Positions 37,489 through 55,411 are shown, counted from the stretch's first letter. The stretch: 64,000 nt of DNA from Candidatus Binatia bacterium (GCA_050015455.1 JBEKBJ010000009.1:8508-72507), one strand, 5' to 3'. Translations and numbers: made by a program. Notes: a model not told the origin generated them from the sequence alone.

Positions 37489-37553
37489 ACCGAGAGCACG
37501 AGCGCAAACAGGTTCCTTCTCCCTCCGGGAGAGTGTCAGGGTGAGGGGGTAAA

Positions 37554-39017: not shown

Positions 39018-39106
39018 TTCGCCCAGGGGACCTCCCGTAGGCTTCGGCGGCAGAGAGTCGCCGCTCCCGAACGCCGCAGACCGGCGCTTTCCAACCGCCC
39101 GTTAGG

Positions 39107-39904
39107 CTAGAGCCCGTGCTCGAGCGAGCGCTGGGTGAACGTGTCGTCTCCGAAACCGGGGTCGTACGTGATCTCGCTGAAGTCGGCCACGGTATGACTC
39201 CCACCCTGTTCGTTCATCATTTCCATGCGAAAGGCCGTCGGAATCGCCCCGACAGTGCGGATATCACGAAGGGTGAGCGATTTTTCCAGCCGGCCGCCCT
39301 TATCGTACATCTGGAACTTCACCATCACGAGATCGTCGGCCGTTAGCCAGGTGAGGATCTTGCTGTACGTGAGGTCCTTCCCGGTCGGGGTGAACTCGAT
39401 GACATGGCTGGGGCGGCCATCCAGTACCTCGTCGCGCAGCAAGACGGCACGGGCATCCGCGTCAGTCCAATCGGTGATGTCCCCGATTATGGCCAGATCG
39501 TCGTAACTGAAATCCGTCCCCATGAAGCTCTCGTGCTTGGCGCCCGCGCTGATTTGTCGGACGCGCTTCAGCTCGGGAAGATACAACCATTGCTCATCTT
39601 TCCCGTGTGGGTCGGCCCACTGCAGGAAGCCAACGCCTTTGACCTCCGGCGGCGATTCGAAGAACAGGATCGTGCGGCTGCGGTCCTCAGGATACTTCTT
39701 GGACTTGATGACGAGCTCGCGATTCCGCTCGCCGCCCCGACGGTCGACGATGCGCAGCTTCAAACGCTGCAGCCGATCGTTCCACTTGCGTGTGGTCTCG
39801 GCCAACAGTCGCGTCTGGTCGAGCAGCTCGCGCGCGGTTGTCGCCGCTGCGGCAGGCGCGGCGACGCACGCGAGGAGCATCAGGAAACCAAAGGTTCTGC
39901 GCAT
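39107..39904 (-). CDS. LolA-like outer-membrane lipoprotein-sorting family protein (the type commonly paired with MMPL/RND exporters)
   Basis: A signal peptide is present. At 265 aa it has the LolA-like half-barrel pattern (...RTILFFESPPEVKGVGFLQWADP...LYLPELKRVRQIS...). Confidence 0.55.
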   Translation of the reverse strand: MRRTFGFLMLLACVAAPAAAATTARELLDQTRLLAETTRKWNDRLQRLKLRIVDRRGGERNRELVIKSKKYPEDRSRTILFFESPPEVKGVGFLQWADPHGKDEQWLYLPELKRVRQISAGAKHESFMGTDFSYDDLAIIGDITDWTDADARAVLLRDEVLDGRPSHVIEFTPTGKDLTYSKILTWLTADDLVMVKFQMYDKGGRLEKSLTLRDIRTVGAIPTAFRMEMMNEQGGSHTVADFSEITYDPGFGDDTFTQRSLEHGL

Positions 39905-40025
39905 GTGACGTTCCTCCTATGTCATGATGTCGGCGAGGCCGGCCTCGTGACCGCCGGCGGTCAACCCACCGCCGCATTCCCACAGGCTGCGAGCTTATTC
40001 GCACCTCCCGACTTCTTGCCGAATT

Positions 40026-41627
40026 TCACAGCTTGTACTCGAGCCGGACGAAGCCTTCGTCGTTGCGCCGATATTGACCGATTAACGAACCGGCGCGTCC
40101 CGCAATGAACAAGTAACCGACCTGGGCATTCAAGTTGTCTGTAAGGCGGTACAGAAGCGTGGGGCGGATGAGCGTGTAATCGCTTTCAATTGCATGCATG
40201 CCGATCAGCTGCGTTTGCAATCGGTCCGCCAGAAAGCTCTTGCGCAAGTTGGCAAGCAGCCGCGTCTCGACGTTTTTGATCAATAGGTCCACGTCGTTGT
40301 GCAATACATCGGTTTGGTTCACCTGCAGGAGCAGGAGGTAGCCTTCGTAGACGTAATCGACCCCGAGGCCCCACTCGGCGGCGGAATGGATGACGGTGGC
40401 GGGAGGCAGCAGCACTGTTGCCTGGCCGGCGCCCTGGGTGAGTGCCGTCAAGGCATTCTTGATTTCGCCGGCGAGGGCTTGCGGATTCGTCACCAAGTCC
40501 CGCAGGTCGCGGGGGAAGGGGCGCCCGCTGACAAAAGCCCCCTCCCCGCGCACGGTGAAGCGATCAAACGCGTATGCGAAGTCCGCCCCCCATGAGTCGA
40601 TCCGGTGGAATTCGGGCGACAGGGTCGTGGCGCCGGACAAATCCTTCACGTGAAACGGATTGGCAAGGCTCGGATCGGGCTGGCCGAAAACCTGCGCCGT
40701 CAAATTGAACCCCGGCTCGATGTCGAAGCCGTGAAAGTAATACAGCGCCAGATCGACGTCGCGGATGAGCGCCGAGTAACGCACACCGACCGTGCTGTCA
40801 TTCAGACGCGTCGCCGGCGGCGCCACGTTGCGCACGCGGAAAGCGAGCGGCACATTGAACCCCGGACTGGGGCTCCCGTCGGGCAGAGTGATGAGGCCCG
40901 GCGGCACGAAGAAGTTGGGCGTCGGCACACCCGCCGGGGGAAACCAGCGTTCCGCATCGCAATGCGAGGCGTTGCCCTGGACATCACACGTCGCCAAAGG
41001 GAACCGAGGCGGCACATACTTCGGCACCCAAACGACGGTCAGACGGCTCTCCGGCGGGATGGCGGCGGTCTCCGGCAGATAATACGACGCCTGCAGGGCG
41101 GGCACACCGATCCGTTCTTCGGCTTCCTCTGCTAGGAACGGATCGAAGTAGGCGATGGGGTTGATCAAATTGTTCGGCTGCGTGCGGTCGAGCTTCCCCC
41201 AAGCCACCTTCTGGATGCCGAGGCGGAGATCGACGGAAGGGAGGACCATGCTGAGGTACGCTTCGTCGAACTCCACCGCGGGTGATATGTCCTGAAAGAC
41301 GCCATTCCACGAGTAGACACCGGCGCGGTCGGCTTTCAGCGTCGGGCCGCCATTCGTCCCGACCGTCGTCGCATCGAATCGGACCCACTTGGCCAGCTCC
41401 ACACCGACGTGCAGGCGTAACTCCTCCAGAGTCCGTTCGTGCTTGGTAGCCCCGTTCTCCTCGACGACTTCCCGGACGCGCAGGGTTCCGTCAAGATCAA
41501 GCGGCCGGCCGCCGACGGTCGTTTGCATCGGCCAGACGGCCGGGGCCGCTAACATCCAAACAACCACGACCAGCACCAACCAGATTCCTATCTTCGCCGG
41601 CATCCACCCTCTGGCCATCGTGTCCAC
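40026..41627 (-). CDS. Putative outer-membrane beta-barrel protein (DUF1302-like partner of the LolA-like protein)
   Basis: A signal peptide/TM is present at the N-terminus. The 533-aa protein has alternating beta-strand-like segments and ends ...VRLEYKL. The family is a guess from gene context. Confidence 0.4.
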   Translation of the reverse strand: MDTMARGWMPAKIGIWLVLVVVVWMLAAPAVWPMQTTVGGRPLDLDGTLRVREVVEENGATKHERTLEELRLHVGVELAKWVRFDATTVGTNGGPTLKADRAGVYSWNGVFQDISPAVEFDEAYLSMVLPSVDLRLGIQKVAWGKLDRTQPNNLINPIAYFDPFLAEEAEERIGVPALQASYYLPETAAIPPESRLTVVWVPKYVPPRFPLATCDVQGNASHCDAERWFPPAGVPTPNFFVPPGLITLPDGSPSPGFNVPLAFRVRNVAPPATRLNDSTVGVRYSALIRDVDLALYYFHGFDIEPGFNLTAQVFGQPDPSLANPFHVKDLSGATTLSPEFHRIDSWGADFAYAFDRFTVRGEGAFVSGRPFPRDLRDLVTNPQALAGEIKNALTALTQGAGQATVLLPPATVIHSAAEWGLGVDYVYEGYLLLLQVNQTDVLHNDVDLLIKNVETRLLANLRKSFLADRLQTQLIGMHAIESDYTLIRPTLLYRLTDNLNAQVGYLFIAGRAGSLIGQYRRNDEGFVRLEYKL

Positions 41628-41931
41628 GGTTCTGTCATTTCCTCCTGGTCAAGGCCTACGCGCCAGGTGCGAAGTCGCCCCACCCCGTGGCGCGGGCCGC
41701 AAACGCTTTTGGGCTTGAAACGTCGGACACGCTTTGCATAACTCAGCTGTCACTGTCAAGCGGAGAAAACCGTCCGTGAGAGACGACCAGCTGTCGCCGG
41801 CTCGCGCGGAGTCCTGCGGCCACCAAGCCAGTGACAGGCAGGATGGCAGATCGCGCTACTGTACCGAGGGGAATTTCGCGCCCACGGCCTTGATCATGGA
41901 GGGCGACGCCGTCAGCGTCGATGTGACGGCG

Positions 41932-43482
41932 TCATCGTGCGAGCGATTGGAAATCGGGCGCCTCGAGCTCGGCGAGCGTCGGATTCCACAATCCCTGCTT
42001 CCGCAGGATCCGGACATTGTGGACGTGAATTATGAGGGACAGCCCCAGGACATGCCCATCCTTGCCGTGGAAGAGCTTCACCGCTTCGCGCGGCACAGAG
42101 CGGAACTCTGCCCCCAGATCTGCGTACGCTTGGAGAAGATTCTTCCAGATTAACGCAAACCGCTGTGGGTTCCAGCTGACTGCCGCCGAGGGCTCTGGGG
42201 AGTGCTTCGCCAGCACTGCCACACGCTGCAAGAAGGCATCGGGAGTATAGAGCTTATTCAGTAGCCACTGTGTTCCATATTGCAGCTCATGAACTGTCAT
42301 TTGCTTGGGAATGATATTGGTACCCGTGTATCCGTCTTCCTCATTGAGCGTCCGTAACCGGTGCTCAGCACGGAGGCGCCGTTCGAGGGGCGTGCCCTCC
42401 GGCGCCACCAACATGTTGACCAGTACCGCAGGAATGCCCGCCTGTTGAAGGAACTCCAGCTGCACGCGAAAGGAGTCCTTGGTGTCCGCATCGAAGCCGG
42501 TAATGATGCCAGCTTCAACCGAGATACCTCGTCGCTGGAAGGCGCGGATGTCAGCGATCAGATCGGGTCGCAGGTTCTGCTGCTTTCTTACCTGGCGCAG
42601 CGCTTCGTGGTTGGGCGTCTCGATCCCAATGAAAGCCTGCCTGATACCCGCTTCGGCAGCGAGGTCCAGCAGCCCGGGATCACGCGCAGCGTCGATCGAC
42701 ACCTGGGCTGCAAAGGTGACGCGTTCGGGCTTACCGCGGTTCCACTGGCGAATGGCTTCCAAGATGCCCTTGGCGTGCTTGCGGTGGGCGGTCAGGTTGT
42801 CATCCGCCAGAAAGCCCTCGCGGTAGCCGAGCTGATAGAGTTGCTCGATCTCGGCGACTACGCGCTCGGGTCTCTTGTATCGCTGCCGGCGGCCGAGGTA
42901 GACGATCACATCGCAGAACTCGCATTCGAAGGGGCAGCCGCGACTCGTCTGGACGATCCCCACCCAGTACGCTCCACGCTTGACCTTGCCCATTGCCGGG
43001 AGCGGCGAGTGGTTGAGGTCGACCGGATTCCGCTCCCGGTACTCCGACTTCCAGGAGCCGGCACGGAGATCCGATAGAAACTGAGGCCAGGTCCGTTCGG
43101 CCTCGCCGATGAAGAGAATGTCGGCATGGGGACGCACGGTACTGGATGACAGGGTGGCGTACGGGCCGCCGATGGCCACTAGGTTCCCATGCTGGCGGAA
43201 CACGTCCGCCAGCTTGAGCATACGATCCCTGTGCGTGATGTAGCCGGTGATGCCGACCACGCCCCAGCGTTCGCTCAAATACGGCTCAATGCTTTCGAGC
43301 TGCTCGTCTACGATAGTGACGTTGACATCACTGGGGGCCAAGGCCGCCAATGTAGGCAGCGCGATGTTGGGCGTGTACGCCGCACAACCGGTGATGTCGG
43401 CGGTCTCATTCATGGAGTACAGCGACGGCTTCTGGCCCGGGCTCACCAACAAAACTCGCACCGCGTACTCCTGAGTTGACAC
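41932..43482 (-). CDS. B12-binding-domain radical SAM protein (class B)
   Basis: The N-terminal cobalamin-binding Rossmann-like region (RVLLVSP...IGGPYATL) is followed by the radical-SAM motif SRGCPFECEFC. Confidence 0.8.
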   Translation of the reverse strand: MSTQEYAVRVLLVSPGQKPSLYSMNETADITGCAAYTPNIALPTLAALAPSDVNVTIVDEQLESIEPYLSERWGVVGITGYITHRDRMLKLADVFRQHGNLVAIGGPYATLSSSTVRPHADILFIGEAERTWPQFLSDLRAGSWKSEYRERNPVDLNHSPLPAMGKVKRGAYWVGIVQTSRGCPFECEFCDVIVYLGRRQRYKRPERVVAEIEQLYQLGYREGFLADDNLTAHRKHAKGILEAIRQWNRGKPERVTFAAQVSIDAARDPGLLDLAAEAGIRQAFIGIETPNHEALRQVRKQQNLRPDLIADIRAFQRRGISVEAGIITGFDADTKDSFRVQLEFLQQAGIPAVLVNMLVAPEGTPLERRLRAEHRLRTLNEEDGYTGTNIIPKQMTVHELQYGTQWLLNKLYTPDAFLQRVAVLAKHSPEPSAAVSWNPQRFALIWKNLLQAYADLGAEFRSVPREAVKLFHGKDGHVLGLSLIIHVHNVRILRKQGLWNPTLAELEAPDFQSLAR

Positions 43483-43603
43483 TGCACCTAGTGCCCCTCT
43501 GAGCCAAGATCAACGAAATCGGCGCGAGACCTCACGCTGCCGTAGCCGATTTGCCAGGCGGAACGAAGCTCAAGGGCCCGAAGATCGAGTCGCGGGAATA
43601 CCA

Positions 43604-45778
43604 TCAAGACGATGCGACCTTGCGAGCACGTGCGTAGCGGAGCGGGCGCGACTCCATCTCCGTATGTGCTTCAGGTGGAGTGGATCGACCGCCCGCGTCG
43701 CACGGCGGCAGATTGACGCAAAAGCTGCTTCCGTGGCCCTCGCGGCTGTCAACAGTGATAGAGCCACCGTGCTCGCTAACGATTTGATGAGCGATGGCCA
43801 AACCCAGACCCGTCCCCTTGCCCTTCGTGGTGAAAAAGGGGTCGAAGATGTGTTCGAGCTGGTCTGGTGGGATACCGACGCCCGTGTCTTGGATCTCAAT
43901 TTGACCGAAGGCGCCATTTTGATGATCGACGCAGCGAGTGGAGATTGCGACGACGCCGCCGGGTCGGGTCGCCTGAATCGCGTTCAGGACCAAATTGATC
44001 AACACCTGCTTGATTTGGTCGCCGTCGGCATTGACGAGCGGAACATTTGCCGAAAGCGCGCGCGTCAGGGTCAGATTGTGTTTTCGCGCTTCCGGTTCGA
44101 GCAGCGTCGCCACGCGCTCCACCAGCTCGTTGAGATTCACGGCGGCCAAGGAAGGAGTGCTGGAGCGAGCGAAGGACAGCAATTCCGTGATCAGGTCGGA
44201 GATACGTTTGACCTCATTAGCGGTCATGCCGAGGAAAGTGGTGAAGAACTCCTGGTCATGCAGTCGCTGCGGGGCCAGTTGGAAAAACGTCTGGATCGAT
44301 ACCAGCGGATTCCGCACCTCGTGCGCGATGCCGGCTGCCAGCGTGCCTAGTGCGGACAAGCGGTCCGCGCGGCGGATGATGTCTTGTGACTTCTTCAGCT
44401 CCTCGTACAGCCGTGCGTTTTCGAGCGCGACCGAAGCTTCAGCGGCGAGGGTCTCGAGCAAATCGAGGTCCTCCGCAGAGAAGGCTTCGAGGTTTCGCTT
44501 ACCGCCCAGGCCGATGAACCCAAGAAGCTTCTCACCGAGGATCAGCGGGATGCAAACCTCCCAGCCGTTACGGCGGCAGAGCTCGCTTACGGCTGTGCGC
44601 GCCGCCACGTCGGTGCCGGCCACCAGTTCCTCACGCAGCACGACTTCCCGGCTGTGTGCCAGGGAGCGCACGAACTCATCGCTTTCGGCAAACTCGGCCT
44701 GCGCCGAATTCTCACCGAGCTGGTAGCGCACCGAATATGTTTGCCTCATGTCGTCCCGCAGCCAAACGCCGACCCGGCTCACGTGCAGTGTGTAACTCAG
44801 GGTCGAGGCGATCTCGCGGATGAGCTTCTCGTGTTCCAAGATCCGAACGATGGAGCGAGCGAAACTACCGAGTGCGGTACGGTATTCGCTCTTCTCGCGG
44901 AAGAAGGTCTGCTGAATCCGGGACTGCGCTTGAATCCGAAGGACAGGGAACAGCACTGCGATGGCCACGAACATCAACAGCACGGCAAACGAGAAATCCG
45001 GTTGCACGTGGCCGAAGGCGAGCCGTTGTAACCACACCATGAGCGCGAAGGCTGGCCCGATGAGAATGCAAGCCACTGCGGCGTAGGCTACCCCTTTGCT
45101 CACGACGACATCGATGTCCATCAACCGGTGGCGCGCGATTGCGTAGGCGATGATCGCCGCGTACAGCGCGCTGCCAAAATGACCGAGTGGGTAGATCGGA
45201 ACGCCGAAGATCGGCAGGAAGTTGGTCAACCCCGTGGGAAGGACGGCGGCAGCCAACAACCAAAACCGTACTTGCAGCTTGCGCCGCGGGGAGGTCGTGG
45301 TGTGGTAGTGATGGATGAGCACGCCTAGCGCCAAGGTGCATTGGATGACCGCTGCGGCGATGAAGACGCCGTAGAGACGTGTGCCAACGGGGTAGAGGCC
45401 CCACGCGTAGTGCCGTGCGCCAGAAACGAGGAGCCCGAGCGCGTTGGCTACGATCAGCCCAGCGGAAACGGAATAGCTGCATCCGAGCAGCCAACGGGAC
45501 AGCGATTTTGGGGTACCCGCAAGCGTGAGCGCGAGGTGCAGAACGGTAGCTGGCACGAGTATCGTGCCGGGCCTGAGGATACTGCCCCACCACAACGCGC
45601 GGCTGGGGTCGGGTATGGCGTAGAATACGAAGTTGTTCAGGTTCCAGAGTGCCAGCGCCACGCCCATCAGCACGAAAACCTGATTGAGGCGTGCGCGCCG
45701 GTCACGCGCGAGCACCAGGACGCCCAGCAACAGATTGAGCACGGCGGAGATCAGCGGGACGAGCCAGTGATACTTCAT
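43604..45778 (-). CDS. Sensor histidine kinase, PrsK-like architecture (multi-TM N-terminal domain, GAF, HisKA, HATPase), paralog 1
   Basis: There are ~8 predicted TM helices in the first ~300 aa, then a GAF-like region. The H-box is AAGIAHEVRNPL, followed by the N/G1/G2 boxes (DTGVGIP...GTGLGLAI). The start ATG overlaps the stop of the upstream acyltransferase gene (ATGA). Confidence 0.75.
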   Translation of the reverse strand: MKYHWLVPLISAVLNLLLGVLVLARDRRARLNQVFVLMGVALALWNLNNFVFYAIPDPSRALWWGSILRPGTILVPATVLHLALTLAGTPKSLSRWLLGCSYSVSAGLIVANALGLLVSGARHYAWGLYPVGTRLYGVFIAAAVIQCTLALGVLIHHYHTTTSPRRKLQVRFWLLAAAVLPTGLTNFLPIFGVPIYPLGHFGSALYAAIIAYAIARHRLMDIDVVVSKGVAYAAVACILIGPAFALMVWLQRLAFGHVQPDFSFAVLLMFVAIAVLFPVLRIQAQSRIQQTFFREKSEYRTALGSFARSIVRILEHEKLIREIASTLSYTLHVSRVGVWLRDDMRQTYSVRYQLGENSAQAEFAESDEFVRSLAHSREVVLREELVAGTDVAARTAVSELCRRNGWEVCIPLILGEKLLGFIGLGGKRNLEAFSAEDLDLLETLAAEASVALENARLYEELKKSQDIIRRADRLSALGTLAAGIAHEVRNPLVSIQTFFQLAPQRLHDQEFFTTFLGMTANEVKRISDLITELLSFARSSTPSLAAVNLNELVERVATLLEPEARKHNLTLTRALSANVPLVNADGDQIKQVLINLVLNAIQATRPGGVVAISTRCVDHQNGAFGQIEIQDTGVGIPPDQLEHIFDPFFTTKGKGTGLGLAIAHQIVSEHGGSITVDSREGHGSSFCVNLPPCDAGGRSTPPEAHTEMESRPLRYARARKVASS

Positions 45779-46422
45779 CGCGCGCTCGTGTCCTCACCAG
45801 CCGGCGCAGCGAAGGCCGCGTTCAGCAGATGGTTGGCGGCGGCGTAGCGCGCCGGCAGGTCGACCATGTGCAGCCGCATCAACAAGTGCGGTACCCCACC
45901 GAAGGGCAGGTAGGGAATATTCGGCGGGGTCAGCGCCTCGAACAGAATGGACTCGTACATCTTTTGTACGGTTGGCACCGCGCAGATGAAGATATCGTCA
46001 ATGTTCTGCATCTGGCAGACATCGTAGAGGAGCCGAATCAGGCCCAGGTAAACCTGCATCGCCCGCGTGATGCGCCGAAACGGCGCAGCGATGCAAAGGC
46101 GCGTGGTTTCCCCCGGGGGGTGTCCCGGGCGGAGGAACGGCGTGAGATCGAGGCTGGTTTCCATTTCGAACGGCCGCCCCGTAGGGCCCAGCAGGCGGAT
46201 CATTCCCACCGCCTCACCGGCTTCCGACATGGCGAGCAGATGAATCGCGCGCTCGTCTATGGGCCCCCACTCTACCGCCCGTGGTCCGTAGCCGAGCTCG
46301 TCGCCGTAAACCGCTTGCCGGAGCTGCAAGATTGCCTCGCGTCGGTGTGGCCCCGCAACCTCGAAGCACAAACGCCAGGATTCCACGGGGCAAATCGTAT
46401 TATGCTCTGCTGTTGACTTCAA
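45775..46422 (-). CDS. GNAT-fold N-acyltransferase resembling N-acyl-amino-acid / autoinducer (LuxI-like) synthases ('exosortase-system-associated acyltransferase'-like)
   Basis: At 215 aa, weak LuxI/NAS-like features are visible (W..CFEV, DE.A.HLLA, IRLL). The gene is divergent from an ACP-KAS pair. It begins with TTG and the RBS is weak. Confidence 0.45.
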   Translation of the reverse strand: MKSTAEHNTICPVESWRLCFEVAGPHRREAILQLRQAVYGDELGYGPRAVEWGPIDERAIHLLAMSEAGEAVGMIRLLGPTGRPFEMETSLDLTPFLRPGHPPGETTRLCIAAPFRRITRAMQVYLGLIRLLYDVCQMQNIDDIFICAVPTVQKMYESILFEALTPPNIPYLPFGGVPHLLMRLHMVDLPARYAAANHLLNAAFAAPAGEDTSAR

Positions 46423-46466
46423 GGAGCACGTTGGACGATATTGTCACTCTCTCTTCGTCGAGAGTT

Positions 46467-46742
46467 ATGATCCAAGAACCGGCTCAACAAGCGCCCTCGA
46501 TAGAAGAAGTCAAAGCAACCCTGCGACGGCTCATCGGGGAGATCGGGGATTTGGACGCCGATTCGATCACCGATTCCTCCACGCTGGATGAAGATATTCC
46601 GCTGCCGTCGATCCAGTTCATCGAACTGCAAGTCGCCGTTGAAGACATTTTCGATATCCAGCTCGACCCGGTAGAGATCGTTGAGCGAAATACATTTGGG
46701 GCGATTGCTGCCCTAATCTGCGATAAGGTCCGTGCAAGTTGA
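46467..46742 (+). CDS. Acyl-carrier-protein-like small protein
   Basis: The 91-aa acidic protein has an ACP-like helix II region (LDEDIPLPSIQFIELQVAVEDIFDIQL) with a Ser for phosphopantetheinylation. ATG 46467 lies within the larger track ORF 46281..46742. Confidence 0.5.
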   Translation: MIQEPAQQAPSIEEVKATLRRLIGEIGDLDADSITDSSTLDEDIPLPSIQFIELQVAVEDIFDIQLDPVEIVERNTFGAIAALICDKVRAS

Positions 46743-46751
46743 CTACCGTGA

Positions 46752-48026
46752 GTGCCGTGTGATTTTGCGATGAGAGAAGGCGTACGGGCCGTGCGGCGCG
46801 TGGTGATCACTGGGATAGGCCTCATTGGACCGACCGGAGTTGGGCTTCGGGCCTTCTGGGAGTCCCTGCTGGAAGGCCATTCAGGCATTGGCCGCATCTC
46901 CCGCTTCGACCCGAGCCCGTACCAGTGTCAGATTGGCGGCGAGGTACGTGACCGGAGTTACGAAGAGCTGCTGGATCCGCGCCAGCTCCGCACCACGACG
47001 CACGCCACACAGCTGGCCCTTGGGGCGGCCGAGCTGGGGCTTCGGGACGCGCGCCTCTCACCAACTTACTACGACCCGGCCCTCATCGGGGTCAGCATCG
47101 GCACCGCAATAGGTGGTTGGCGAGATCTCGCACAGCAACACGCTATCCTGCTTGAGCGCGGCGCCCGCCGCGTCAACCCTTTCATCGCCAACGGCACCCC
47201 GAATCATACCAGCGGCGTCGAACTTGCCGGCGCGTTCGGTGCGTGCGGAGGCCACTTCACCTTTTCGTGCGGCTGTCCGTCTAGTCTCCAGGCCATCGGC
47301 CACGCGGCAACCCTCGTTGCCACAGAAGAGTTGGACGTCTGCTTGGCGGGCGGTACGGAGAGCCCACTCACCCCAATGATCTTCGCCGGCATGGGCCGCA
47401 CCCAGGAGCTGTGCACAATCAACGACGATCCGCAGCACGCCAGCCGGCCCTTCGACCGTGCCCACGCCGGCATCGTTCTCAGTGAAGGCGCCTGTATCTT
47501 GGTACTGGAGTCGGCCGAGCATGCCGCTCGACGAGGCGTGGCACCGTACGCGGAAGTCGTCGGTCACAGCTCATCCTGCGACGCCAAGGGTTTGTACAAT
47601 TTCGACCCGAGCGGCGAAACCGGCGCACGGGCGATTCACCGACTCCTCCAGCGGACCGGTGTGCCTGCAACGGAGATTCACTACGTTTGCTCACACGCGA
47701 ACTCATCCCCGGCATTCGACCGCAAAGAAACGGTCGTCATCAAGAAAGCCTTCGGCGAGTGCGCCGCGCGCCTGCCGGTCAGCTCGATCAAGGCCGTGCT
47801 AGGACACCTGTTCGGTGCCTCCGGCGCGTTCCAAGTGGCTGCGGCGGCCTTGGCCATCCGCAACCAAACTGTACCGCCGACCCACAACCTCGAAGTTCCG
47901 GACCCGAAATGCGATCTGGACTATGTGCCCCGACAGGCACGCCCGGCACACATTCGCAACGCGCTGGTCACCAGCTATGGGTACGGGGGCGTGAACTCGT
48001 ACCTGCTGGTAACAGAGACTCACTGA
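46752..48026 (+). CDS. Beta-ketoacyl-ACP synthase (KAS I/II family), paralog 1
   Basis: The N-terminal VVITGIGLIGPTG region and active-site Cys/His/His regions are collinear with FabF/FabB. The C-terminus ends GYGGVNSYLLV. Confidence 0.85.
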   Translation: MPCDFAMREGVRAVRRVVITGIGLIGPTGVGLRAFWESLLEGHSGIGRISRFDPSPYQCQIGGEVRDRSYEELLDPRQLRTTTHATQLALGAAELGLRDARLSPTYYDPALIGVSIGTAIGGWRDLAQQHAILLERGARRVNPFIANGTPNHTSGVELAGAFGACGGHFTFSCGCPSSLQAIGHAATLVATEELDVCLAGGTESPLTPMIFAGMGRTQELCTINDDPQHASRPFDRAHAGIVLSEGACILVLESAEHAARRGVAPYAEVVGHSSSCDAKGLYNFDPSGETGARAIHRLLQRTGVPATEIHYVCSHANSSPAFDRKETVVIKKAFGECAARLPVSSIKAVLGHLFGASGAFQVAAAALAIRNQTVPPTHNLEVPDPKCDLDYVPRQARPAHIRNALVTSYGYGGVNSYLLVTETH

Positions 48027-48210
48027 AGCCGGGGAAGTGGCTGCTCACAGCAGCCGCGCCGTAGCAACGTGGTGAATCTGGTTCGTGCCCTCGAAGATCT
48101 GCATCAGCTCGGCATCGCACACAAGCTTCCGCCCGCCCTTCGAACATGCTCAAGGTGAGCGGACAGCGTTGTCGTAGGGACGTGCCGGTTAGCTCCGGTG
48201 GCGCAGGATA

Positions 48211-50400
48211 CTACGAGGCGGCCTGACGGCGAAGCGCGTAGCCGAGGGGAGCCGATTCGGCGGCTGCAACTGACTGGCCTGCCAGGGCGGACACGACTTC
48301 CTCGACGTACGCCGGGAGATTGACGAAGACGGTTGTCCCCCAACCCTCGCGGCTCTCCACGGTAATGGAGCCGGCGTGTTCAGTGACGATCTGATGCGCG
48401 ATGGGCAACCCCAACCCCGTTCCCTTGGCCTTCGTAGTGAAGAAAGGGTTGAAGATCTCTTCCAAGTGCTCCGGCGCGATGCCGGCCCCGGTATCGCGGA
48501 CCTCCAACTGCACCAAATCCGCGTTGCCATTTCGCACCGTCCGGCTGCTGATCGATACCGCGCCTCCTGGCTCCGTGGCCTGAATGGCGTTGAGAATCAG
48601 GTTGATCAGCACCTGCTTGATCTGATCGCCGTCGGCGCACACGAGTGGGAGGGCCGGCGCCAACCCGCGGGTCAGCGTCAGCTTCCGGTTCTTGGCTTCC
48701 GGCTCTAGCAGCGTGACGACGCGCTCGACGGCTGCGTTGAGATCCAGCGGCCCGAACGCCGCTGTCGGCGAACGGGCAAACGACAAGAGTTCCGTGATCA
48801 GATTCGCAATCCGATTCACCTCACCGGCTGTAGTGTTCAGAAAGGTGGTGGAGAATTCGTGGTCATGCAGACGTTCCGGCGCCAACTGAAAGAAGGTCTG
48901 GATCGACACCAACGGGTTGCGGATTTCGTGGGCGATGCCGGCAGCCAAGGTGCCCAGGGCGGAGAGGCGGTCCGCGCGGCGGATTATATCCTGTGACTTC
49001 TTGAGTTCGTCATACAGACGGGCGTTTTCTAGAGCGATGGCTGCTTCCGCGGCTAGGGTGTTGAGCAACTCAAGATCACCGCTGGAGAAGAGCTCGAGGT
49101 TGCGCTTGCGTCCCAAGTTGACGAAGCCGACGAGCCTGCCGCTGATCGTCAACGGCATCGACACTTCCCAGGCGTTGACTCGGTAAGAATCGCGAATTGC
49201 GGCGAGCTCCGACGAAGCTGCTGCCGCCTCCAACTCCTCGCGGAGGACCGTCTCGGCCCGCTGCGCTAGCAAGCGCACGAGGACATCGCCCCTCGCAAAC
49301 TCTTCGGTTGTCGGGGCAATTCCCGCGCTATGCTGCAGGTGGTACGCTTGATCCGGTGCTTGCAGGAATATCGCCACCCGGTCCAACTGCAGCACCCGTA
49401 TGAGTGTATCGGCCAGCTCACGTAGCAGCTTCTCGCGGTCCAAAATGCGGACGATGGTGCTGGTGAAGCCCGCCAGGGCCGCGCGGTACTCGTGTTTTTC
49501 GCGAAAGAGAGACTGCCCAACGCGTCGCTCGGTGCGGCCGCGTAACAAAGGAAACAGGGCGGCGACCAAGAAGTACGAAACCAAGAGAGCTGTGGAAAAG
49601 TTGGCGTCAAGGTGGCCGAAGCTCTGCTTCTGGATCCAAACAATCAACGTGAAGACCGGGGCGATCAGCGCGAGGGTGCCCAGGGTGTAGCCCACACCCT
49701 TTGTTATAACGATGTCGATGTCCATGAGGCGGTGCTGAACCATGGCGTAGGCCATAAGGCCCGTAAAAGCGGCGCTGGCGAGACTTCCGAGCGGGTAGAT
49801 GGGCACGCCGTACACGGCCAGCAGGTTCGTGGCACCGAGCGGTGCCGCAATCGCCAACGCAAGAAGTAAGAAGCGGGCTTGCAGACGTACGCGGGCTGAG
49901 CCGCTATGCTGATATGCGTACGTGAGCACGCCCAGAGAGAGTATGGCGTTGCCAGCGAAAGACGCTGTGTGCAGGGAGTACAAAGGTTGCGGGCGCGGGT
50001 AATAGCCCCACTGCACCCACTCCACGCGCGAGACCAACATGTCCAATGAATTCGCGGCAACCAGCACGATCCCGATTGCGTAGCTGACCAAGAGTACCGG
50101 GCGCACCCACCGCGCCTTTGTGTCGGTAAAGACCACCGCACAGTGCAGGAACGTCGGCGGCATGAGCACCATCCCGACGCGAAACAGTCGAGACCAGAAG
50201 AACGCCTCCTCCGCCGTAGAGGCGTAGTCCAGAGAGAAGATGTCCATATTCCAGAGCACAATCGTGAGGGACATCAAGGCGAAGGTTTGGTTAACCTGGC
50301 GCTTTTTGTCGTGCTGGTAGACAAAGAGGCACAGCCACAAGTTGGCCAGTGCCGCCACGAGCGGGGCGACCCAGTGGAATTGGGGAGCCCCGTCCGTCAC
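48211..50400 (-). CDS. Sensor histidine kinase, PrsK-like, paralog 2
   Basis: Same architecture as paralog 1; the kinase core is nearly identical (KKSQDIIRRADRLSALGTLAAGIAHEIRNPLVSIQTFFQLAPERLHD). I take the start as GTG 50400, which overlaps the TGA of the upstream KAS gene (GTGA) and gives 729 aa, versus 724 aa for paralog 1. The track ORF extends to 50520. Confidence 0.75.
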   Translation of the reverse strand: MTDGAPQFHWVAPLVAALANLWLCLFVYQHDKKRQVNQTFALMSLTIVLWNMDIFSLDYASTAEEAFFWSRLFRVGMVLMPPTFLHCAVVFTDTKARWVRPVLLVSYAIGIVLVAANSLDMLVSRVEWVQWGYYPRPQPLYSLHTASFAGNAILSLGVLTYAYQHSGSARVRLQARFLLLALAIAAPLGATNLLAVYGVPIYPLGSLASAAFTGLMAYAMVQHRLMDIDIVITKGVGYTLGTLALIAPVFTLIVWIQKQSFGHLDANFSTALLVSYFLVAALFPLLRGRTERRVGQSLFREKHEYRAALAGFTSTIVRILDREKLLRELADTLIRVLQLDRVAIFLQAPDQAYHLQHSAGIAPTTEEFARGDVLVRLLAQRAETVLREELEAAAASSELAAIRDSYRVNAWEVSMPLTISGRLVGFVNLGRKRNLELFSSGDLELLNTLAAEAAIALENARLYDELKKSQDIIRRADRLSALGTLAAGIAHEIRNPLVSIQTFFQLAPERLHDHEFSTTFLNTTAGEVNRIANLITELLSFARSPTAAFGPLDLNAAVERVVTLLEPEAKNRKLTLTRGLAPALPLVCADGDQIKQVLINLILNAIQATEPGGAVSISSRTVRNGNADLVQLEVRDTGAGIAPEHLEEIFNPFFTTKAKGTGLGLPIAHQIVTEHAGSITVESREGWGTTVFVNLPAYVEEVVSALAGQSVAAAESAPLGYALRRQAAS

Positions 50401-51641
50401 AGCAAGTCCTGTGCGCCAAGCAGTAAGAAAGCATTGACGCCACCGTAGCCAAAATTCGATATCAGAGAGCGCCGAGGCCGCAACGATCGCGGGACGTTGG
50501 GGACGTAGTCCAAATCGCACTCCGGATCGGGTTCGATGAAGTTGATAGTTGCCGGAAGGATGCCGCGGGTCATCGCGAGCGCCGTTGCGCCCACCTGGAA
50601 CGCACCTGCCGCGCCGAAAGAATGGCCGAGCATCGACTTGATCGAGCTAATCGGGATCTGGTGGGCGCTCTCGCCAAAAGCGCGCTTTAGGACTCGCGTC
50701 TCCTTGCGATCCCAGTTCGGACACGAGCTGCCGTGGGCGCTGACGTACTCCACCTCGCCTGGAGAAACCTGGCTGCGCCGCAGCGAAGCCAGCAGTGTGG
50801 CGATGGCGATTTCACCCGTCGGCTCCAAAGCGTAGGCGTCCTGGGCCTCCGATCCAATGGCGTGCCCGAGCACCTCAGCGTAAAGGGGCGCGTCGCGCAG
50901 CTTAGCATGGGCCAACTCTTCGATGACCAGCACGGCGCTGCCCTCGCCGACGACAAGCCCCTCGTGGTCCTTATCGAAGGGGCGCGATGCCTCCTCGGGC
51001 GCGCCGTTCTTCTTGGCCAAGTCGCCTGCTCGGCACATTGCGGCAAAGACCAGCGGTGTTACAGGGCTCTCAGCGCCGCCGACAATGCACACGTCAAGAA
51101 CGCCCGACCGGATCAGGTCAGCACCCGCCGCGATGGCACAAAGGCCAGAGGCACACGCTGCTGACTGCGTGAAGTTTGCTCCCGCCGCCCTGGCTTCGCT
51201 CGCAACCTCGCTTACGGTCGAGTGATAATACGTTGCCAAAGTCAGAAACGGGTTGATCCGATTCGCCCCGCGCTCGAGCAGTATGGTGTGTTGCTTCTCC
51301 GCGTCGCTCAAGCTGCCAAGCGACGTTCCCAACACCACCCCGGCCCGCATCGGGTCATATCGCGGGCGCTCGAGGCCGGCGTCATTGAGCGCCAGGCGCG
51401 CTGCGCCCACTGCCATACGCGTCACGTGTGGCATGCGCCGGGCGCGTTTCGGCTCCAGAAGATCCACATAGCTTTCGTCGATGACCTCTGCTGCAATCCG
51501 CGAGGGGTAGCCCGAGGCGTCAAAGCGGGTCACCGGACCGACGCCGGAACGCCCTTCCATCAACCCCGACCAGAAGGCTTCCTTCCCGATACCGGTGGGG
51601 CCAACAACGCCGATGCCCGTAATGACGATGCGTCGCTGCAC
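50397..51641 (-). CDS. Beta-ketoacyl-ACP synthase (KAS family), paralog 2
   Basis: The region MQRRIVITGIGVVGPTGIG... is collinear with KAS enzymes and with the paralog at 46752. Confidence 0.85.
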   Translation of the reverse strand: MQRRIVITGIGVVGPTGIGKEAFWSGLMEGRSGVGPVTRFDASGYPSRIAAEVIDESYVDLLEPKRARRMPHVTRMAVGAARLALNDAGLERPRYDPMRAGVVLGTSLGSLSDAEKQHTILLERGANRINPFLTLATYYHSTVSEVASEARAAGANFTQSAACASGLCAIAAGADLIRSGVLDVCIVGGAESPVTPLVFAAMCRAGDLAKKNGAPEEASRPFDKDHEGLVVGEGSAVLVIEELAHAKLRDAPLYAEVLGHAIGSEAQDAYALEPTGEIAIATLLASLRRSQVSPGEVEYVSAHGSSCPNWDRKETRVLKRAFGESAHQIPISSIKSMLGHSFGAAGAFQVGATALAMTRGILPATINFIEPDPECDLDYVPNVPRSLRPRRSLISNFGYGGVNAFLLLGAQDLL

Positions 51642-51850
51642 GCTAGACTACCAGGGAGCGAGGCCACTGCACTTGGCGGCTGCGCTCGTCGACTCGCACA
51701 ATAGTGGGCATGCGGAGACGCTTGACCTGCATGCTTCGCCCTCAGCTCACTCCGGACCAAAGTGTACGGCGACACGGTTTGCACTGTCAAGCGAAACCGT
51801 ACTTGCGAAGCCACGGCAGCCCCGGCTTGGGGCTGTGAGAAACGGGAAGG

Positions 51851-54202
51851 TTAGTTCCCGGCGGTGGCTCGTATGCGGGCGGTGACAGGCCAGGCGTAGC
51901 CCATCGGTACCGCACCTAACATCTTCGGCCGCGTCGTGATGAACAACGCCGGGATGATCGTGAGCGTGGCCAACGCGCTAACGCCCATCATCAACGCCGT
52001 GAGCACGCCGAGATGAATCCAGGCGCCGAATCCCGAAAGCGGCAAAACCAAGTAGCCCAAGGCGACCGCTGACGAGACGAAAAAAATTGCCTTTCCCGAG
52101 GTGAGCAGGCTGGCACGCAGCGCCGCCGCCAGATCGCCATCGTGCTGCTGCAGCTCTTCCCGAACCCGGAAGATCAGGTAGATGGCGAAGTCGGCGCCGA
52201 TGCTGATCGCCGTCGAGGTGATGGCCGCCGTCGCCAGACTCAGCCAGGTGTGCGACCAGCCCATGATCCCGAGATTGACCACCACCGAAACCGCCAGTGG
52301 CGTTAGCACAATCAGACCACCGACGAACGACCGCAGGACCAGCGACGAAAGCAGAAAGATGATCACCGTCACTTGTATAACGTTCAGGATCTTCTCGCGC
52401 ACGATGACCTCGTTCATCGCCGTCTGTACGCCCAACGCGCCGCCGGCGAGATGCACCTCCGCCGGCAGTCCCTGAAAACGCTGCGTCACATAGGCGCCGA
52501 GATCGTTGAACAGCTCACGTCCAAACTCGGCACCGTCGGTCTTGGCGTAGGCGCGGATGACGGAGAGGCGGTGGGACGAATCGATGACCGAGGTGAAGTC
52601 GTTCGGTCCGGAGAGCGAATACAGAAAGAGGTATTGCGCGATCAGCCGCTTCGTATCGGGAATGGCGTAGTAGGCCGCGTCGTCATTGTTCATGGCCCGA
52701 TGCATGCGTTTGACGTAATCCGCCATCGAGGTGGCGGCACCGATTCCCTGCCGCTTTTCGAGAAAGTCCTCCACGTCGCTCATCGCCCGCAACACGCCGG
52801 GATCCTCGATGTCCCCTTCCTCTTGTCCCTCGACCAAGAGGGTCAAGGTCGACGTGCCGGCCAGGTGCTGGTTCAGCAACGCGTCCGCCTGGCGCACGGG
52901 TGAACTTGCGGGGAACCAGCCCTTGAAACTGTTATCGACCTTCAGTGACAGTGCCCCGATGAAGAACAGGACCACAACTGCCATGGAGACGAGCAGCACG
53001 GCCTGGGGCCGTCGCACCACCAGTGCGGCGATCCATTCCAATCCCGTCTTGAGAATCCACCCTTCTTTTTCGCGTGCGACCTCACGCCCGCGAGGGGCCG
53101 GCAGCATCGCCCGGCAGGCCGGCGTAAAGGTCATCTCGATTATCAACGCACTGACGATGCCGCAGGCCAGCAGCAAGCCGAAGACGCGCACGCTGGTCAC
53201 GCCGAAAGCCACCAGCGACCCGAATCCCGCCGACGCAATCAGTCCCGCGGTCAGCATCACCGGCCCGACCGCAGTGACCGAGCGGATGACGGCGAGCTTG
53301 CTGTCGCCTACCTGCGCGAACTCTTCATAGTAGCGCTTCAGGATCTGTACGGCATGGCCCGCGGCGATGGCGAGTATCACCACGGGGGTGACGGCGCTCC
53401 AGGTGTCCATTGGCTGACGCAGCCAACCCATGATGCCCAACGACCAGATGACGCTGAGCAAGGCCGTGGCCAAGGGCAAAAACACCGCCTGCAGGGTGCG
53501 GAAGGCTTCGTAGTGCACCAATCCGATGACCATGACGGCGATCGGAAACAGAATGGCCATCATCGCCGTGTAGCGTGCGGCTGAGGCGCGAATCATCGGC
53601 GCGCCACCCAACACCACGTCCGCATCCGCGTCCCGTTCGCCCGCGACCACCGATTCCACTTCGTCAACGATGGCCTCACCCGTGAGCTCGCCGTTGAAAT
53701 CGACGACGATCAGTGCCGCGCTGCCGTCGGCGGCGACCAAGGTCCCCTTGTAGAGTTTGTCGCTGAAGACTTCCTCTTTCAGCTGCGCGATGGCGGCGTC
53801 GTCGTGCGGCGCTTCGGCCATCAGCGGGCGCACCTCCATGCCGTCAGCGGTACCCTTGATGAATTTCACTCGCTCCGCTGCGATGCTCAGGACATTGTTG
53901 GCCACCGCACCCGGCAGTTGCCCGACGAGGCGCGTAATGCGCACAATCTTCTCGAGGATGGGCGGGGTGAAAATGTCCCCGTGGCGGGCGATGACACCGA
54001 TGATGAGTGTGGTCTCTCCGCCGAAAATGTCCGCGATGCGATTGTGGACTTGAACGTACGGATGACTCTGCGGCGTCAGCGCCCGCTGGCGGATCTCCAG
54101 GCGCACGTGGGGGAGCTGCGTCGCGAGCAGCGCCGTAGCCGTCAGAACCGCCATCAGCACCGCGAGGCGATGCCGCACGATGAACGTGACATACCGCTCC
54201 AT
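51851..54202 (-). CDS. MMPL/RND-superfamily exporter (lipid-exporter type, HpnN-like topology)
   Basis: There are two blocks of ~6 TM helices, each followed by a large periplasmic loop (12 TM in total). Size and pattern match MMPL proteins. I take the start at ATG 54202 (MERYVTF...). Confidence 0.75.
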   Translation of the reverse strand: MERYVTFIVRHRLAVLMAVLTATALLATQLPHVRLEIRQRALTPQSHPYVQVHNRIADIFGGETTLIIGVIARHGDIFTPPILEKIVRITRLVGQLPGAVANNVLSIAAERVKFIKGTADGMEVRPLMAEAPHDDAAIAQLKEEVFSDKLYKGTLVAADGSAALIVVDFNGELTGEAIVDEVESVVAGERDADADVVLGGAPMIRASAARYTAMMAILFPIAVMVIGLVHYEAFRTLQAVFLPLATALLSVIWSLGIMGWLRQPMDTWSAVTPVVILAIAAGHAVQILKRYYEEFAQVGDSKLAVIRSVTAVGPVMLTAGLIASAGFGSLVAFGVTSVRVFGLLLACGIVSALIIEMTFTPACRAMLPAPRGREVAREKEGWILKTGLEWIAALVVRRPQAVLLVSMAVVVLFFIGALSLKVDNSFKGWFPASSPVRQADALLNQHLAGTSTLTLLVEGQEEGDIEDPGVLRAMSDVEDFLEKRQGIGAATSMADYVKRMHRAMNNDDAAYYAIPDTKRLIAQYLFLYSLSGPNDFTSVIDSSHRLSVIRAYAKTDGAEFGRELFNDLGAYVTQRFQGLPAEVHLAGGALGVQTAMNEVIVREKILNVIQVTVIIFLLSSLVLRSFVGGLIVLTPLAVSVVVNLGIMGWSHTWLSLATAAITSTAISIGADFAIYLIFRVREELQQHDGDLAAALRASLLTSGKAIFFVSSAVALGYLVLPLSGFGAWIHLGVLTALMMGVSALATLTIIPALFITTRPKMLGAVPMGYAWPVTARIRATAGN

Positions 54203-54292: not shown

Positions 54293-55306
54293 TCACAGCC
54301 TTTCGATCGCGGCGGCGATTTCGCGCGTGACGCCGTCGCGCACGGCCTTGGCTGCCACCTTGATAGCGTTCTTGATGGCGCCGGCGTTTGAGCGGCCGTG
54401 CGATTTGATCATGAGGTGCTCGAAGCCGAGGATCGGCGCCCCGCCGTACGCGGCGTAGTCAGTGAGATCCCGCAAGCGGCCGAAACTGTTCGCCAACATG
54501 AAGAAGCCCAGCTTCCAGCGCCAATTGTCGCGGCGCGCCGTTCCCGCTAGGTCAACGACCACTTCGGCTAAGCCCTCCAGCAACTTTAGCACAACATTGC
54601 CGAGCAGCCCCTCGCAGACGATAACGTCCGCCTTGCCTTTGGCGAGGTCGTTGCCTTCGATGTTGCCGACGAAGTTGAGGTCTGGAATGCGCTTGAGGTA
54701 ACGGTGCGCGTTGACAAGGGCGTCGCCTCCTTTGGTCTCCTCGGCGCCCATGTTGAGCAGAGCCACCCGTGGGCTCGGTACCTTGGAGACGTGGCGCGCA
54801 TAGGCACTGCCCATCAAGGCGAACTGCACGAGTTCCGTGGTATCACAACGGATGGTTGCGCCGACATCGAGCAACAGCGCCAGTTGATCCTGGCCGGGGT
54901 ACTCGGTCTGGCGCGGATACACGCTGGCCAGCGCTGCCTTGCGTACGCCGCGGACTATCTTGAAGTGTTGTCCGCAAGCCAGCACGGCGGCGCCCGTGTT
55001 GCCGGCGGTCACTACAGCGTCGGCCTCCCCTTCGGACACCAATCGCGCTGCCACCAGCACGGAGGCGTTGCGCTTCTGCCGCAGCGTGCGCTTCGGGTCC
55101 TCCGCCATGGAAATGAAATCGCGGGTGTGGTGGACACCGATGTGCGCCGGGTTGTAGGGAACGCGATCGAGAGCGGCCTGGATCTGCGCCTCGTCGCCCA
55201 CTAGCGTGCAGTGGATGTCAGTCTCAAGCGAAGCCTGCGCCACACCTTTGACTACCTCTTCGGGAGCGAGATCCCCGCCCATGGCATCAACAGCAATGGT
55301 CGGCAT
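54293..55306 (-). CDS. plsX: Phosphate acyltransferase PlsX
   Basis: The motifs IAVDAMGGD ... GNTGA ... GFEHLMIKSHG match the PlsX family. The start is ATG 55306 (MPTIAVDAMGGD). Confidence 0.85.
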   Translation of the reverse strand: MPTIAVDAMGGDLAPEEVVKGVAQASLETDIHCTLVGDEAQIQAALDRVPYNPAHIGVHHTRDFISMAEDPKRTLRQKRNASVLVAARLVSEGEADAVVTAGNTGAAVLACGQHFKIVRGVRKAALASVYPRQTEYPGQDQLALLLDVGATIRCDTTELVQFALMGSAYARHVSKVPSPRVALLNMGAEETKGGDALVNAHRYLKRIPDLNFVGNIEGNDLAKGKADVIVCEGLLGNVVLKLLEGLAEVVVDLAGTARRDNWRWKLGFFMLANSFGRLRDLTDYAAYGGAPILGFEHLMIKSHGRSNAGAIKNAIKVAAKAVRDGVTREIAAAIERL

Positions 55307-55411
55307 AGCTGGGAATGACTCCTCAACGGCTGTTTGCATACCGTCAGCCGGCGGAGTTGACAATATTGCGTCCTTTCTCTAACCAAGTAGTTCGTTCGGC
55401 TGGAGACCAGC

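Follow-up and report, generated by a model that had tools for sequence, protein, structure and literature searches.

Closest described systems

In the signaling systems CqsA/CqsS, LuxM/LuxN and RpfF/RpfC, the synthase of a hydrophobic signal is encoded beside a polytopic sensor kinase. Here we describe a locus from a Candidatus Binatia bacterium that can be compared with these pairs, although its protein families are unrelated to theirs and its role in signaling is a prediction. The locus lies in a stretch of 64,000 nucleotides (nt) (GCA_050015455.1 JBEKBJ010000009.1:8508-72507; “the window” below, with positions counted from its first letter). Between 39 and 55.4 kb the window holds genes for a FeeM-like acyltransferase with a GNAT fold, an acyl carrier protein (ACP), two beta-ketoacyl-ACP synthases (KASp and KASm), two histidine kinases (HK1 and HK2) and a radical SAM enzyme, together with genes for an MMPL pump, a LolA-like protein and a DUF1302-like outer-membrane barrel (Table 1). 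Our comparisons with related loci indicate that the region is a mosaic of a rare, putative synthase-sensor core (module A, 43.6-48.0 kb) and a common, mobile transport cassette (module B), that is, two modules rather than one fixed pathway. We give this two-module explanation, taken as a whole, a probability of about 0.55.

FeeM resembles the acyltransferase of the window in its GNAT fold (FeeM, 2g0b, is the best match in the Protein Data Bank, PDB), in its Pfam family and in having a dedicated ACP encoded next to it. On the other hand, the two proteins share only 13-15% identity in the structural alignment, and the window protein belongs to a distinct small family and is coupled to a kinase. 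A second comparison is with the TIGR03694 proteins and PrsK/PrsR of XrtA/PEP-CTERM systems, which likewise combine an N-acyltransferase of the acyl-ACP type with a polytopic kinase of PrsK architecture; sigma-54 activators, moreover, occur in relatives of the window. However, both window proteins score below the respective family cut-offs, and the relatives’ sigma-54 activators carry a seven-transmembrane (7TM) and GAF module in the place of a receiver domain. Scanning the called genes of the 64-kb window with Pfam and NCBIfam revealed neither an exosortase or PEP-CTERM protein nor PrsR or PrsT, and membership in the XrtA system was therefore rejected; the window has no exopolysaccharide gene either. 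According to the paper that defined PrsK, the stimulus of this kinase “remains obscure” (PMC1569441).

For module B one of the closest characterized counterparts is AmeABCD of Castellaniella defragrans, which consists of a DUF1302 outer-membrane protein, a DUF1329 protein of the LolA superfamily, a COG4447 periplasmic protein and an HAE3 pump of the resistance-nodulation-division (RND) type (PMC6394551). An HAE3-type RND pump, a periplasmic protein of the LolA superfamily and a DUF1302 barrel are common to both, and AmeABCD handles hydrophobic molecules. In contrast to AmeABCD, the periplasmic protein of the window is of the short PF17131 type (265 aa) rather than the 451-aa DUF1329 type, the barrel has diverged strongly (32 bits to DUF1302), the genes are split ~10 kb apart, and the context is biosynthetic where that of AmeABCD is catabolic. 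The window also lacks an AmeC-like fourth component: Pfam scans of 39-55 kb detected no BNR or PSII_BNR (AmeC-like/COG4447) protein.

In Pseudomonas, a DUF1302/DUF1329 pair (PP_0765/PP_0766) is cofit with an unlinked BNR and RND pair (PP_2018/PP_2019), so that in fitness assays the separate loci act as one system. The split cassette of the window therefore has a precedent, although other protein subfamilies are involved there and the system has been proposed either to export an envelope component or to act as an esterase. HpnN, an RND protein of the HAE3/MMPL type, moves an endogenous lipid (hopanoid) from the inner membrane towards the outer membrane. Unlike module B, HpnN works without co-encoded periplasmic or outer-membrane partners, and the similarity of the window pump to it is very weak (61 bits to TIGR03480, PDB E-value ~5e-4); the relationship to MmpL3 is similarly distant. 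Both modules are variants of known but poorly understood kinds, and a literature search yielded nothing useful on LolA-like proteins with HAE3 pumps, on HisKA_7TM or on TP0789.

A rare acyltransferase core with a kinase

Contigs of relatives that were compared with the window are referred to by number (L001 etc.). The same core was found in every GNAT-bearing contig with enough flanking DNA: KAS and ACP genes are divergent from the GNAT gene, and a histidine kinase gene comes after the latter. Five lineages have this core, with GNAT identities to the window of 100% (the window itself), 88% (L005/L006/L008), 67% (L099), 57% (L001-L004) and 55% (L009). The ACP gene is separated from the GNAT gene by an intergenic region of 80 nt, and a dedicated ACP is kept in all relatives with the core. 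A preliminary description of this DNA had counted KAS and ACP genes as part of the region, and they are present; to this we add that the ACP gene and a second KAS gene are plus-strand genes within the region and diverge from the GNAT gene.

The GNAT family is rare. It comprises 13 clusters at 90% identity among 5.8 billion, while a profile search retrieved 414 clusters at 50% identity among 1.84 billion proteins. When GTDB species-representative genomes were scanned with the GNAT alignment no relative was found, and the same scan of metagenomes returned three loci only.

The window protein scores above the Pfam gathering threshold for FeeM (Table 1) and below the TIGR03694 cut-off (33.3 bits versus 111.95), and it has a weak match to PF13444, which is of the OlsB type. 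No match to Autoind_synth or to an N-acyl homoserine lactone (AHL) synthase model was obtained from Pfam or NCBIfam. Because searching the PDB sequences with the GNAT profile produced nothing meaningful, we turned to a structure model. The AlphaFold2 model (pLDDT 84.7) had FeeM (2g0b) as its best Foldseek match in the PDB, with an E-value of 1.7e-8 and a TMq of 0.66, and the AHL synthases LasI and TofI ranked lower. Among 60 remote GNAT relatives, 31 match TIGR03694 weakly and a few match AHL-synthase or OlsB models (2 of 60 for OlsB). These family and fold matches place the protein in the clade of acyl-ACP-dependent N-acyltransferases, outside any curated family, and we regard it as a putative FeeM-like N-acyl amino acid synthase that would depend on acyl-ACP.

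Both KAS proteins have the Cys-His-His motifs. Relatives’ KASp proteins are 68-93% identical to that of the window, and KASm is 46-49% identical to the same KASp orthologs. Against the FabF model TIGR03150 they score 389 and 398 bits, and both miss the cut-off of 493.75; by these matches they classify as divergent KAS II-like enzymes. We also considered KASm as the housekeeping FabF of a plsX operon. This was rejected, as the protein falls short of the FabF cut-off and the genes fabH, fabD, fabG and acpP are all missing.

The GNAT and HK1 genes are translationally coupled: the stop codon of the first and the start codon of the second overlap by 4 nt, read as ATGA in the window. By coordinates the same 4-nt overlap occurs in L001, L005 and L009, and thus in four of the five lineages; in L099 there is a 2-nt gap. 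Orthologs of HK1 (61-87% identical) come after the GNAT gene in all relatives. The preliminary description had listed the GNAT and kinase genes correctly, but it had missed their conserved coupling as well as the resemblances to PrsK and to N-acyl amino acid synthases. HK1 aligns with positions 7-679 of the 679 positions of the PrsK model TIGR02916 at 208.7 bits, and HK2 aligns over the full model length at 157.2 bits; the cut-off is 300. Among the NCBIfam matches listed, PrsK is the only one that aligns the N-terminal sensor half of either kinase. HK2 is a paralog of HK1 (50-54% identical to HK1 orthologs by tblastn) that is restricted to the lineage of the window. It probably starts at a GTG codon, which forms the overlap GTGA with the stop codon of KASm.

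In two of the relatives, genes for sigma-54 activators (AAA+ and HTH_8 domains) come after the kinase gene (L005:14564-19398 and L001:10241-12604). Their N-termini consist of a 7TM and GAF module that is 23-27% identical to HK1 and HK2 over ~400-450 residues, and this sensor module stands in place of a receiver domain. These activators would be membrane-bound, one-component regulators, with sensor halves paralogous to those of the two kinases. One sensor module is therefore joined to two different outputs and is always found beside the acyltransferase gene, which is our main argument that it detects the product of the acyltransferase. HK1 is accordingly the proposed sensor for the module A product, and the balance of the evidence tips in favor of module A being a synthase-sensor pair.

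We infer the following scheme for module A. The ACP and a KAS II-like enzyme would build a particular acyl-ACP, in which acyl-CoA dehydrogenases may also take part in the relatives. The FeeM-like GNAT would then move the acyl chain onto an amine, most likely that of an amino acid, to give an N-acyl amide, which the radical SAM enzyme may tailor further in the window lineage and its closest relative. HK1, and perhaps HK2, would sense this lipid through the multi-pass membrane and GAF module, and HK1 would signal to a response regulator encoded elsewhere. Such an arrangement would resemble an autoinducer synthase with its receptor.

A widespread transport cassette

Every gene that the preliminary description had listed was recovered on the minus strand, with coordinates that agree exactly or to within a few codons. 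The MMPL protein matches PF03176 in two stretches, far above the cut-off of 20.5 bits (Table 1), and its hydropathy profile has two clusters of transmembrane segments. Against TIGR00921 it aligns over positions 1-731 of 733 with 218 bits, which is under the cut-off of 351.9, and the protein is best classified as a divergent HAE3-like member. The preliminary description had set a test beforehand, namely whether the protein would group with siderophore or heavy-metal RND families; it is of the HAE3 type, and NCBIfam gave no match to either of those families. The ATG at 54202 is taken as the start of the gene because it aligns with the N-termini of two homologs and has GGAG upstream, and a longer open reading frame (ORF) with a TTG start at 54259 was rejected in its favor.

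The LolA-like protein has a signal peptide with a lipobox-like LLAC motif, and its profile matches PDB entries 9tp6, 3bk5 and 4z48. The AlphaFold2 model of the barrel (pLDDT 87) is all-beta and forms a large beta-barrel; Foldseek searches with it returned generic porins only and no specific solved homolog.

That the pump, the LolA-like protein and an outer-membrane partner form a transport set, as first proposed, is borne out by their genomic distribution. In L012 the best homologs of all three (barrel 73%, MMPL 67% and LolA-like 77% identical) are encoded in one operon, in the order barrel, MMPL, glycosyltransferase and LolA-like. The glycosyltransferase gene (L012:14076-15440) is of the GT28/UDPGT type. 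A scan of species-representative genomes with the LolA-like alignment returned 80 loci from many phyla, among them Vibrio and other Gammaproteobacteria, Zetaproteobacteria, Nitrospinota, Planctomycetota, Gemmatimonadota, Spirochaetales, Verrucomicrobiota-type organisms and Desulfobacteraceae. A same-strand MMPL gene adjoins the LolA-like gene in 61 of them. Five loci were looked at closely, and in these the MMPL and LolA-like genes are followed by a gene of 400-446 codons, which encodes a Pfam DUF1302 protein in three cases; a TetR gene is located upstream in two.

Within Binatia the genes of module B are often dispersed. Barrel homologs (49-71% identical) stand alone in L010, L013, L014 and L015, and LolA-like homologs (76% identical) occur among housekeeping genes in L016 and L017. 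In the window itself the cassette is split by module A, which leaves the LolA-like gene 12 kb from the pump. Taken together, these matches and gene orders make it very probable that module B is a real tripartite transporter of lipids or other hydrophobic molecules.

Different histories of the two modules

Breakpoints were located by DNA comparison (blastn and tblastn) of the window with L005 and L096. From 41939 to 48016, that is, from the radical SAM gene to KASp, the window and L005 are colinear and 88.5% identical. The two sigma-54 activator genes of L005 are absent from the window. The blastn breakpoints relative to L005 are at window positions 39022 and 41805-41896 (the lpd-proximal spacer of L005), so that a 2.8-kb segment (~39023-41804) sits between the lpd stop codon and this spacer. 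This segment carries the barrel and LolA-like genes and is 91.4% identical to L096 DNA over 2687 nt; at the protein level the LolA-like and barrel proteins of L096 are 94% and 93% identical to those of the window. The neighbors in L096 are a different B12-radical SAM/DUF4070 paralog (36%), aromatic amino acid genes and toxin-antitoxin genes. Because so similar a copy exists in another context, the barrel and LolA-like pair is a recent arrival beside module A. Just downstream of the LolA-like gene of L096 there are 114 nt (L096:10830-10943) that are 82% identical to the interior of the window lpd gene (38555-38668), which suggests that the pair was once beside lpd and moved as a block.

The MMPL gene has a different history. 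An MMPL gene whose product is 60% identical is found beside the core in L001-L004, and L005 retains a remnant of 55 residues at the same position (L005:6717-6881, part of a called 138-aa ORF; it matches residues 365-419 of the window MMPL protein with 74.5% identity). The gene has therefore decayed in the closest relative, and its linkage to the core is old: by this comparison MMPL is ancestrally syntenic with the KAS, ACP, GNAT and kinase genes. In relatives an acyl-CoA dehydrogenase gene comes after the MMPL gene, and in the window this gene has been replaced by KASm and HK2. A remnant is left at 48048-48128 that is 85% identical to the C-terminus of the L005 acyl-CoA dehydrogenase, the gene being intact at this place in relatives. 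The rearrangements, like the synteny and the breakpoints, are read directly from the DNA.

The radical SAM gene

The radical SAM gene had been described as encoding a class-B enzyme in the neighborhood of the exporter. The radical SAM core is there, with a CPFECEFC motif and a DUF4070 domain at the C-terminus. However, the Pfam B12-binding domain PF02310 was not detected, and matches to the B12-radical SAM models of NCBIfam are full-length but weak, all of them far under cut-off. The nearest solved structures include AprD4, CysS and TokK. CysS and TokK are methyltransferases, whereas the NCBIfam annotation makes AprD4 a radical SAM diol dehydratase and no methyltransferase. AprD4 is not known to use cobalamin. 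With AprD4 among the nearest relatives, a role as class-B C-methylase is one possibility only. An exact sequence look-up of the protein gave no match, probably as a result of another start-codon call.

In its distribution the radical SAM gene follows the GNAT and kinase genes and not the exporter. In L005 an 87% identical ortholog comes directly after the kinase gene, and at the L001, L009 and L099 loci an ortholog is absent. The gene thus occurs in only the two closest of the five lineages, the window and that of L005. It is an accessory gene of module A, encoding a candidate tailoring enzyme with a B12-binding-like N-terminus.

Genes of the radical SAM/DUF4070 type were seen beside the transport cassette in two cases, L096 and L056. 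The L096 gene was considered as an ortholog of the window gene and set aside as a paralog, being only 36% identical. In L056 (Bacterium BMS3Bbin05; L056:2635-12050) a B12-binding radical SAM/DUF4070 gene, 33% identical to that of the window, forms a group with DUF6866 and GAF-HD genes that is divergent from a cassette of MMPL, LolA-like and 446-aa genes.

Weighing the explanations

How might module B serve module A? The HAE3/MMPL pump would extract the lipid from the inner membrane, the LolA-like carrier would ferry it through the periplasm, and the DUF1302 barrel would insert it into the outer membrane or release it there. Module B would be a general-purpose system, present in Binatia and many other phyla, that plausibly exports the module A product here without being dedicated to it. 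That module B carries the product of module A is a tentative proposal, and we hold it less firmly than the reading of module A as a synthase-sensor pair.

Several observations weigh against the two-module explanation. For the acyltransferase, generic GNATs score nearly as well as FeeM in the fold comparison, and FeeM is only marginally better. For the sensor, Pfam and NCBIfam scans found no response regulator or sigma-54 activator near the window kinases, and a search for sigma-54 promoters near them found none. The link between the modules is weakened by the recent insertion of the barrel and LolA-like pair, by L005, which has kept module A while its MMPL gene decayed and has no barrel or LolA-like gene within 10 kb, and by the L096 and L012 loci, where module B genes have no module A genes nearby. 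In addition, the families of module B are 15-50 times more widespread than GNAT, with at least 197 and at least 687 clusters for cassette proteins as compared to 13. Promoter and terminator consensus scans of the region were at chance level, and the operon structure of the region is therefore not established. Finally, other cargoes are suggested by neighboring genes. A Caroten_synth gene adjoins the MMPL position in L001-L006, which makes a carotenoid possible, and the glycosyltransferase gene in the L012 operon hints at a glycolipid.

A further candidate is a phospholipid, as in L097 (L097:3602-4989) a CDP-alcohol phosphatidyltransferase gene overlaps the start of a LolA-like gene whose product is 82% identical to that of the window. 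Nearby, L097 also encodes a wax-ester synthase/DGAT and a MAPEG protein.

The strongest alternative is that module B is unconnected to module A. It would be a housekeeping or stress system whose position is incidental, and it would deliver another envelope lipid (carotenoid glycoside, hopanoid or phospholipid) or act in efflux or uptake of hydrophobic compounds like AmeABCD, which confers monoterpene tolerance (PMC6394551). We consider this a serious contender, at a little short of even odds. It is consistent with the orthologs of the barrel and LolA-like proteins, which most Binatia genomes encode singly, surrounded by housekeeping genes, with the TetR gene ahead of the cassette in other phyla, and with the carotenoid, glycosyltransferase and phosphatidyltransferase genes just described. 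On the other hand, an incidental position does not sit well with an MMPL gene that stayed beside the GNAT core across lineages of 57-100% GNAT identity, nor with L001, where this gene is co-oriented and contiguous with an acyl-CoA dehydrogenase gene and a second such gene lies within the ACP-KAS operon.

The opposite possibility, that the genes between 39.1 and 54.2 kb all belong to a single dedicated pathway which makes, modifies, exports and senses one specialized lipid, is close to what the preliminary description had put forward, and it appears unlikely. Nine of the eleven genes are co-oriented with short gaps, and certain pairings do recur: the core with MMPL (L001, and as a remnant in L005), the core with the radical SAM gene (L005), and MMPL with barrel and LolA-like genes (L012). 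B12-radical SAM/DUF4070 genes also occur beside the cassette in L096 (36%) and L056 (33%), but these are paralogs and not orthologs. Synteny in relatives extends to MMPL with KAS, ACP, GNAT and kinase genes; it does not extend to the barrel and LolA-like pair, and the whole set was found in no other genome examined. The pair is recently inserted and is also found in another context, L005 retained the core after losing MMPL, and cassette proteins are common in Binatia genomes that have no GNAT. What remains of the earlier scheme is that the cassette is real and its pump ancestrally linked to biosynthetic genes; the region is not one self-contained unit, and the link is loose.

It could be speculated that the GNAT catalyzes an OlsB-like first step in the synthesis of a structural membrane aminolipid and not of a signal, the kinases then monitoring the state of the envelope or its lipids. 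The weak PF13444 match, the OlsB model matches of 2 of the 60 remote relatives and the nearby plsX and two KAS genes are in line with this idea. We nevertheless find it improbable: no OlsA or PlsC-like O-acyltransferase was present in the window region or in the relatives’ loci, a family as rare as this GNAT would be unusual for a bulk lipid, and signal synthases such as those of CqsA/CqsS and LuxM/LuxN are the enzymes that typically have a sensor kinase tightly coupled to them. Lipidation of a protein (the kinase itself or a secreted protein) from acyl-ACP, in the manner of toxin-activating acyltransferases, would fit the dedicated ACP and the translational coupling of the GNAT to a membrane protein, but it is very improbable given that characterized FeeM family members acylate free amino acids and that the kinase is the sole conserved candidate substrate protein in the loci.

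Gene map and surroundings

The gene map from 39 to 55.4 kb was made with a filter for G+C content by codon position together with Pfam and NCBIfam scans (Table 1). The window belongs to a metagenome-assembled genome and has a G+C content of ~63%, and the GNAT protein is identical to NCBI MGD0946658.1. The region lies between sucA, sucB and lpd (33417-39017, plus strand) and the genes rplU, rpmA and proB.

Table 1. Features of the Binatia locus, with positions in the window.
Feature	Position	Strand	Basis
LolA-like	39107..39904	-	PF17131, 178 bits
DUF1302-like outer-membrane beta-barrel	40026..41627	-	PF06980, 32.4 bits vs cut-off 23.2
Inserted segment, 2.8 kb, barrel and LolA-like genes	39023..41804	not applicable	blastn breakpoints vs L005
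Radical SAM	41932..43482	-	Pfam Radical_SAM and DUF4070, CxxxCxxC motif
HK1	43604..45778	-	Pfam HisKA_7TM, GAF, HisKA, HATPase
Putative FeeM-like GNAT	45775..46386	-	PF21926, 38.1 bits vs cut-off 27
ACP	46467..46742	+	ORF and sequence; orthologs match PF00550
KASp, KAS II-like	46752..48026	+	Pfam ketoacyl-synt N and C domains
Acyl-CoA dehydrogenase remnant, last 27 codons	48048..48128	-	tblastn
HK2	48211..~50400	-	Pfam and NCBIfam; HisKA_7TM, GAF, HisKA, HATPase
KASm, second KAS II-like	50397..51641	-	Pfam and NCBIfam
MMPL/HAE3-type RND transporter	51851..54202	-	PF03176, 156.7 bits; TIGR00921 end to end
plsX	54293..55363	-	TIGR00182, 330 bits vs cut-off 243

The plsX gene has the same orientation as the MMPL gene, lies upstream of it at a distance of 90 nt and may be co-transcribed with it. 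In no relative (L001, L005 and L012 sets compared) does plsX adjoin MMPL, and the gene is probably outside the system. An Rfam scan found no RNA or riboswitch, and gaps of 304 nt and 209 nt contain no noteworthy small ORFs.

Elsewhere in the window, a 217-aa protein with two DsrC-like stretches is encoded at 57447-58100 (minus strand), next to a cysteine desulfurase-like aminotransferase gene (58152-59360). The gene at 61913-63676 (minus strand) encodes a protein with Fe-S and CCG domains that is heterodisulfide reductase-like and is fused at its C-terminus to a response-regulator receiver domain; a PAS kinase gene and two genes for single-domain response regulators are beside it (59365-61765). 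At 23018-26065 (plus strand) there is a gene for a 1015-aa protein with FG-GAP repeats and a choice-of-anchor Q domain. The AT skew is unusually high at 24-26 kb (0.23), and a HepT/NTase-type gene (22083-22490) lies just upstream of the 1015-aa gene. A 978-aa ORF at 6-2942 (plus strand) has no Pfam match and only a weak, coiled-coil-like match to SMC; its G+C content is equally high, at 0.75, in codon positions 1 and 3. Finally, a cluster at 14232-19589 (minus strand) encodes methylmalonyl-CoA mutase, biotin carboxyl carrier, biotin carboxylase and carboxyltransferase, and these genes of the propionate/methylmalonyl-CoA pathway could supply branched extender units.

Implications for Binatia and related systems

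Pairs of MMPL and LolA-like genes, sometimes together with a DUF1302 barrel gene, occur in many phyla, Vibrio included, and are almost uncharacterized. The Binatia locus, in which such a cassette surrounds a biosynthetic core and its parts reside at separate loci, provides a frame for studying how hydrophobic compounds move to the Gram-negative outer membrane.

A more speculative proposal, which we think unlikely, is that PrsK-type sensor modules (7TM and GAF) have as their cognate ligands the N-acyl amides that FeeM-like synthases produce, that the Binatia locus is a minimal, exosortase-free version of such a circuit, and that the HAE3, LolA-like and DUF1302 route carries the signal. If true, this would constitute a new class of lipid autocrine or quorum signal. 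The conserved acyltransferase and kinase genes, as a candidate synthase-sensor pair, are compact and amenable to heterologous expression. As Binatia are uncultured, their envelope and signaling biology can at present be approached only through predictions of this kind.

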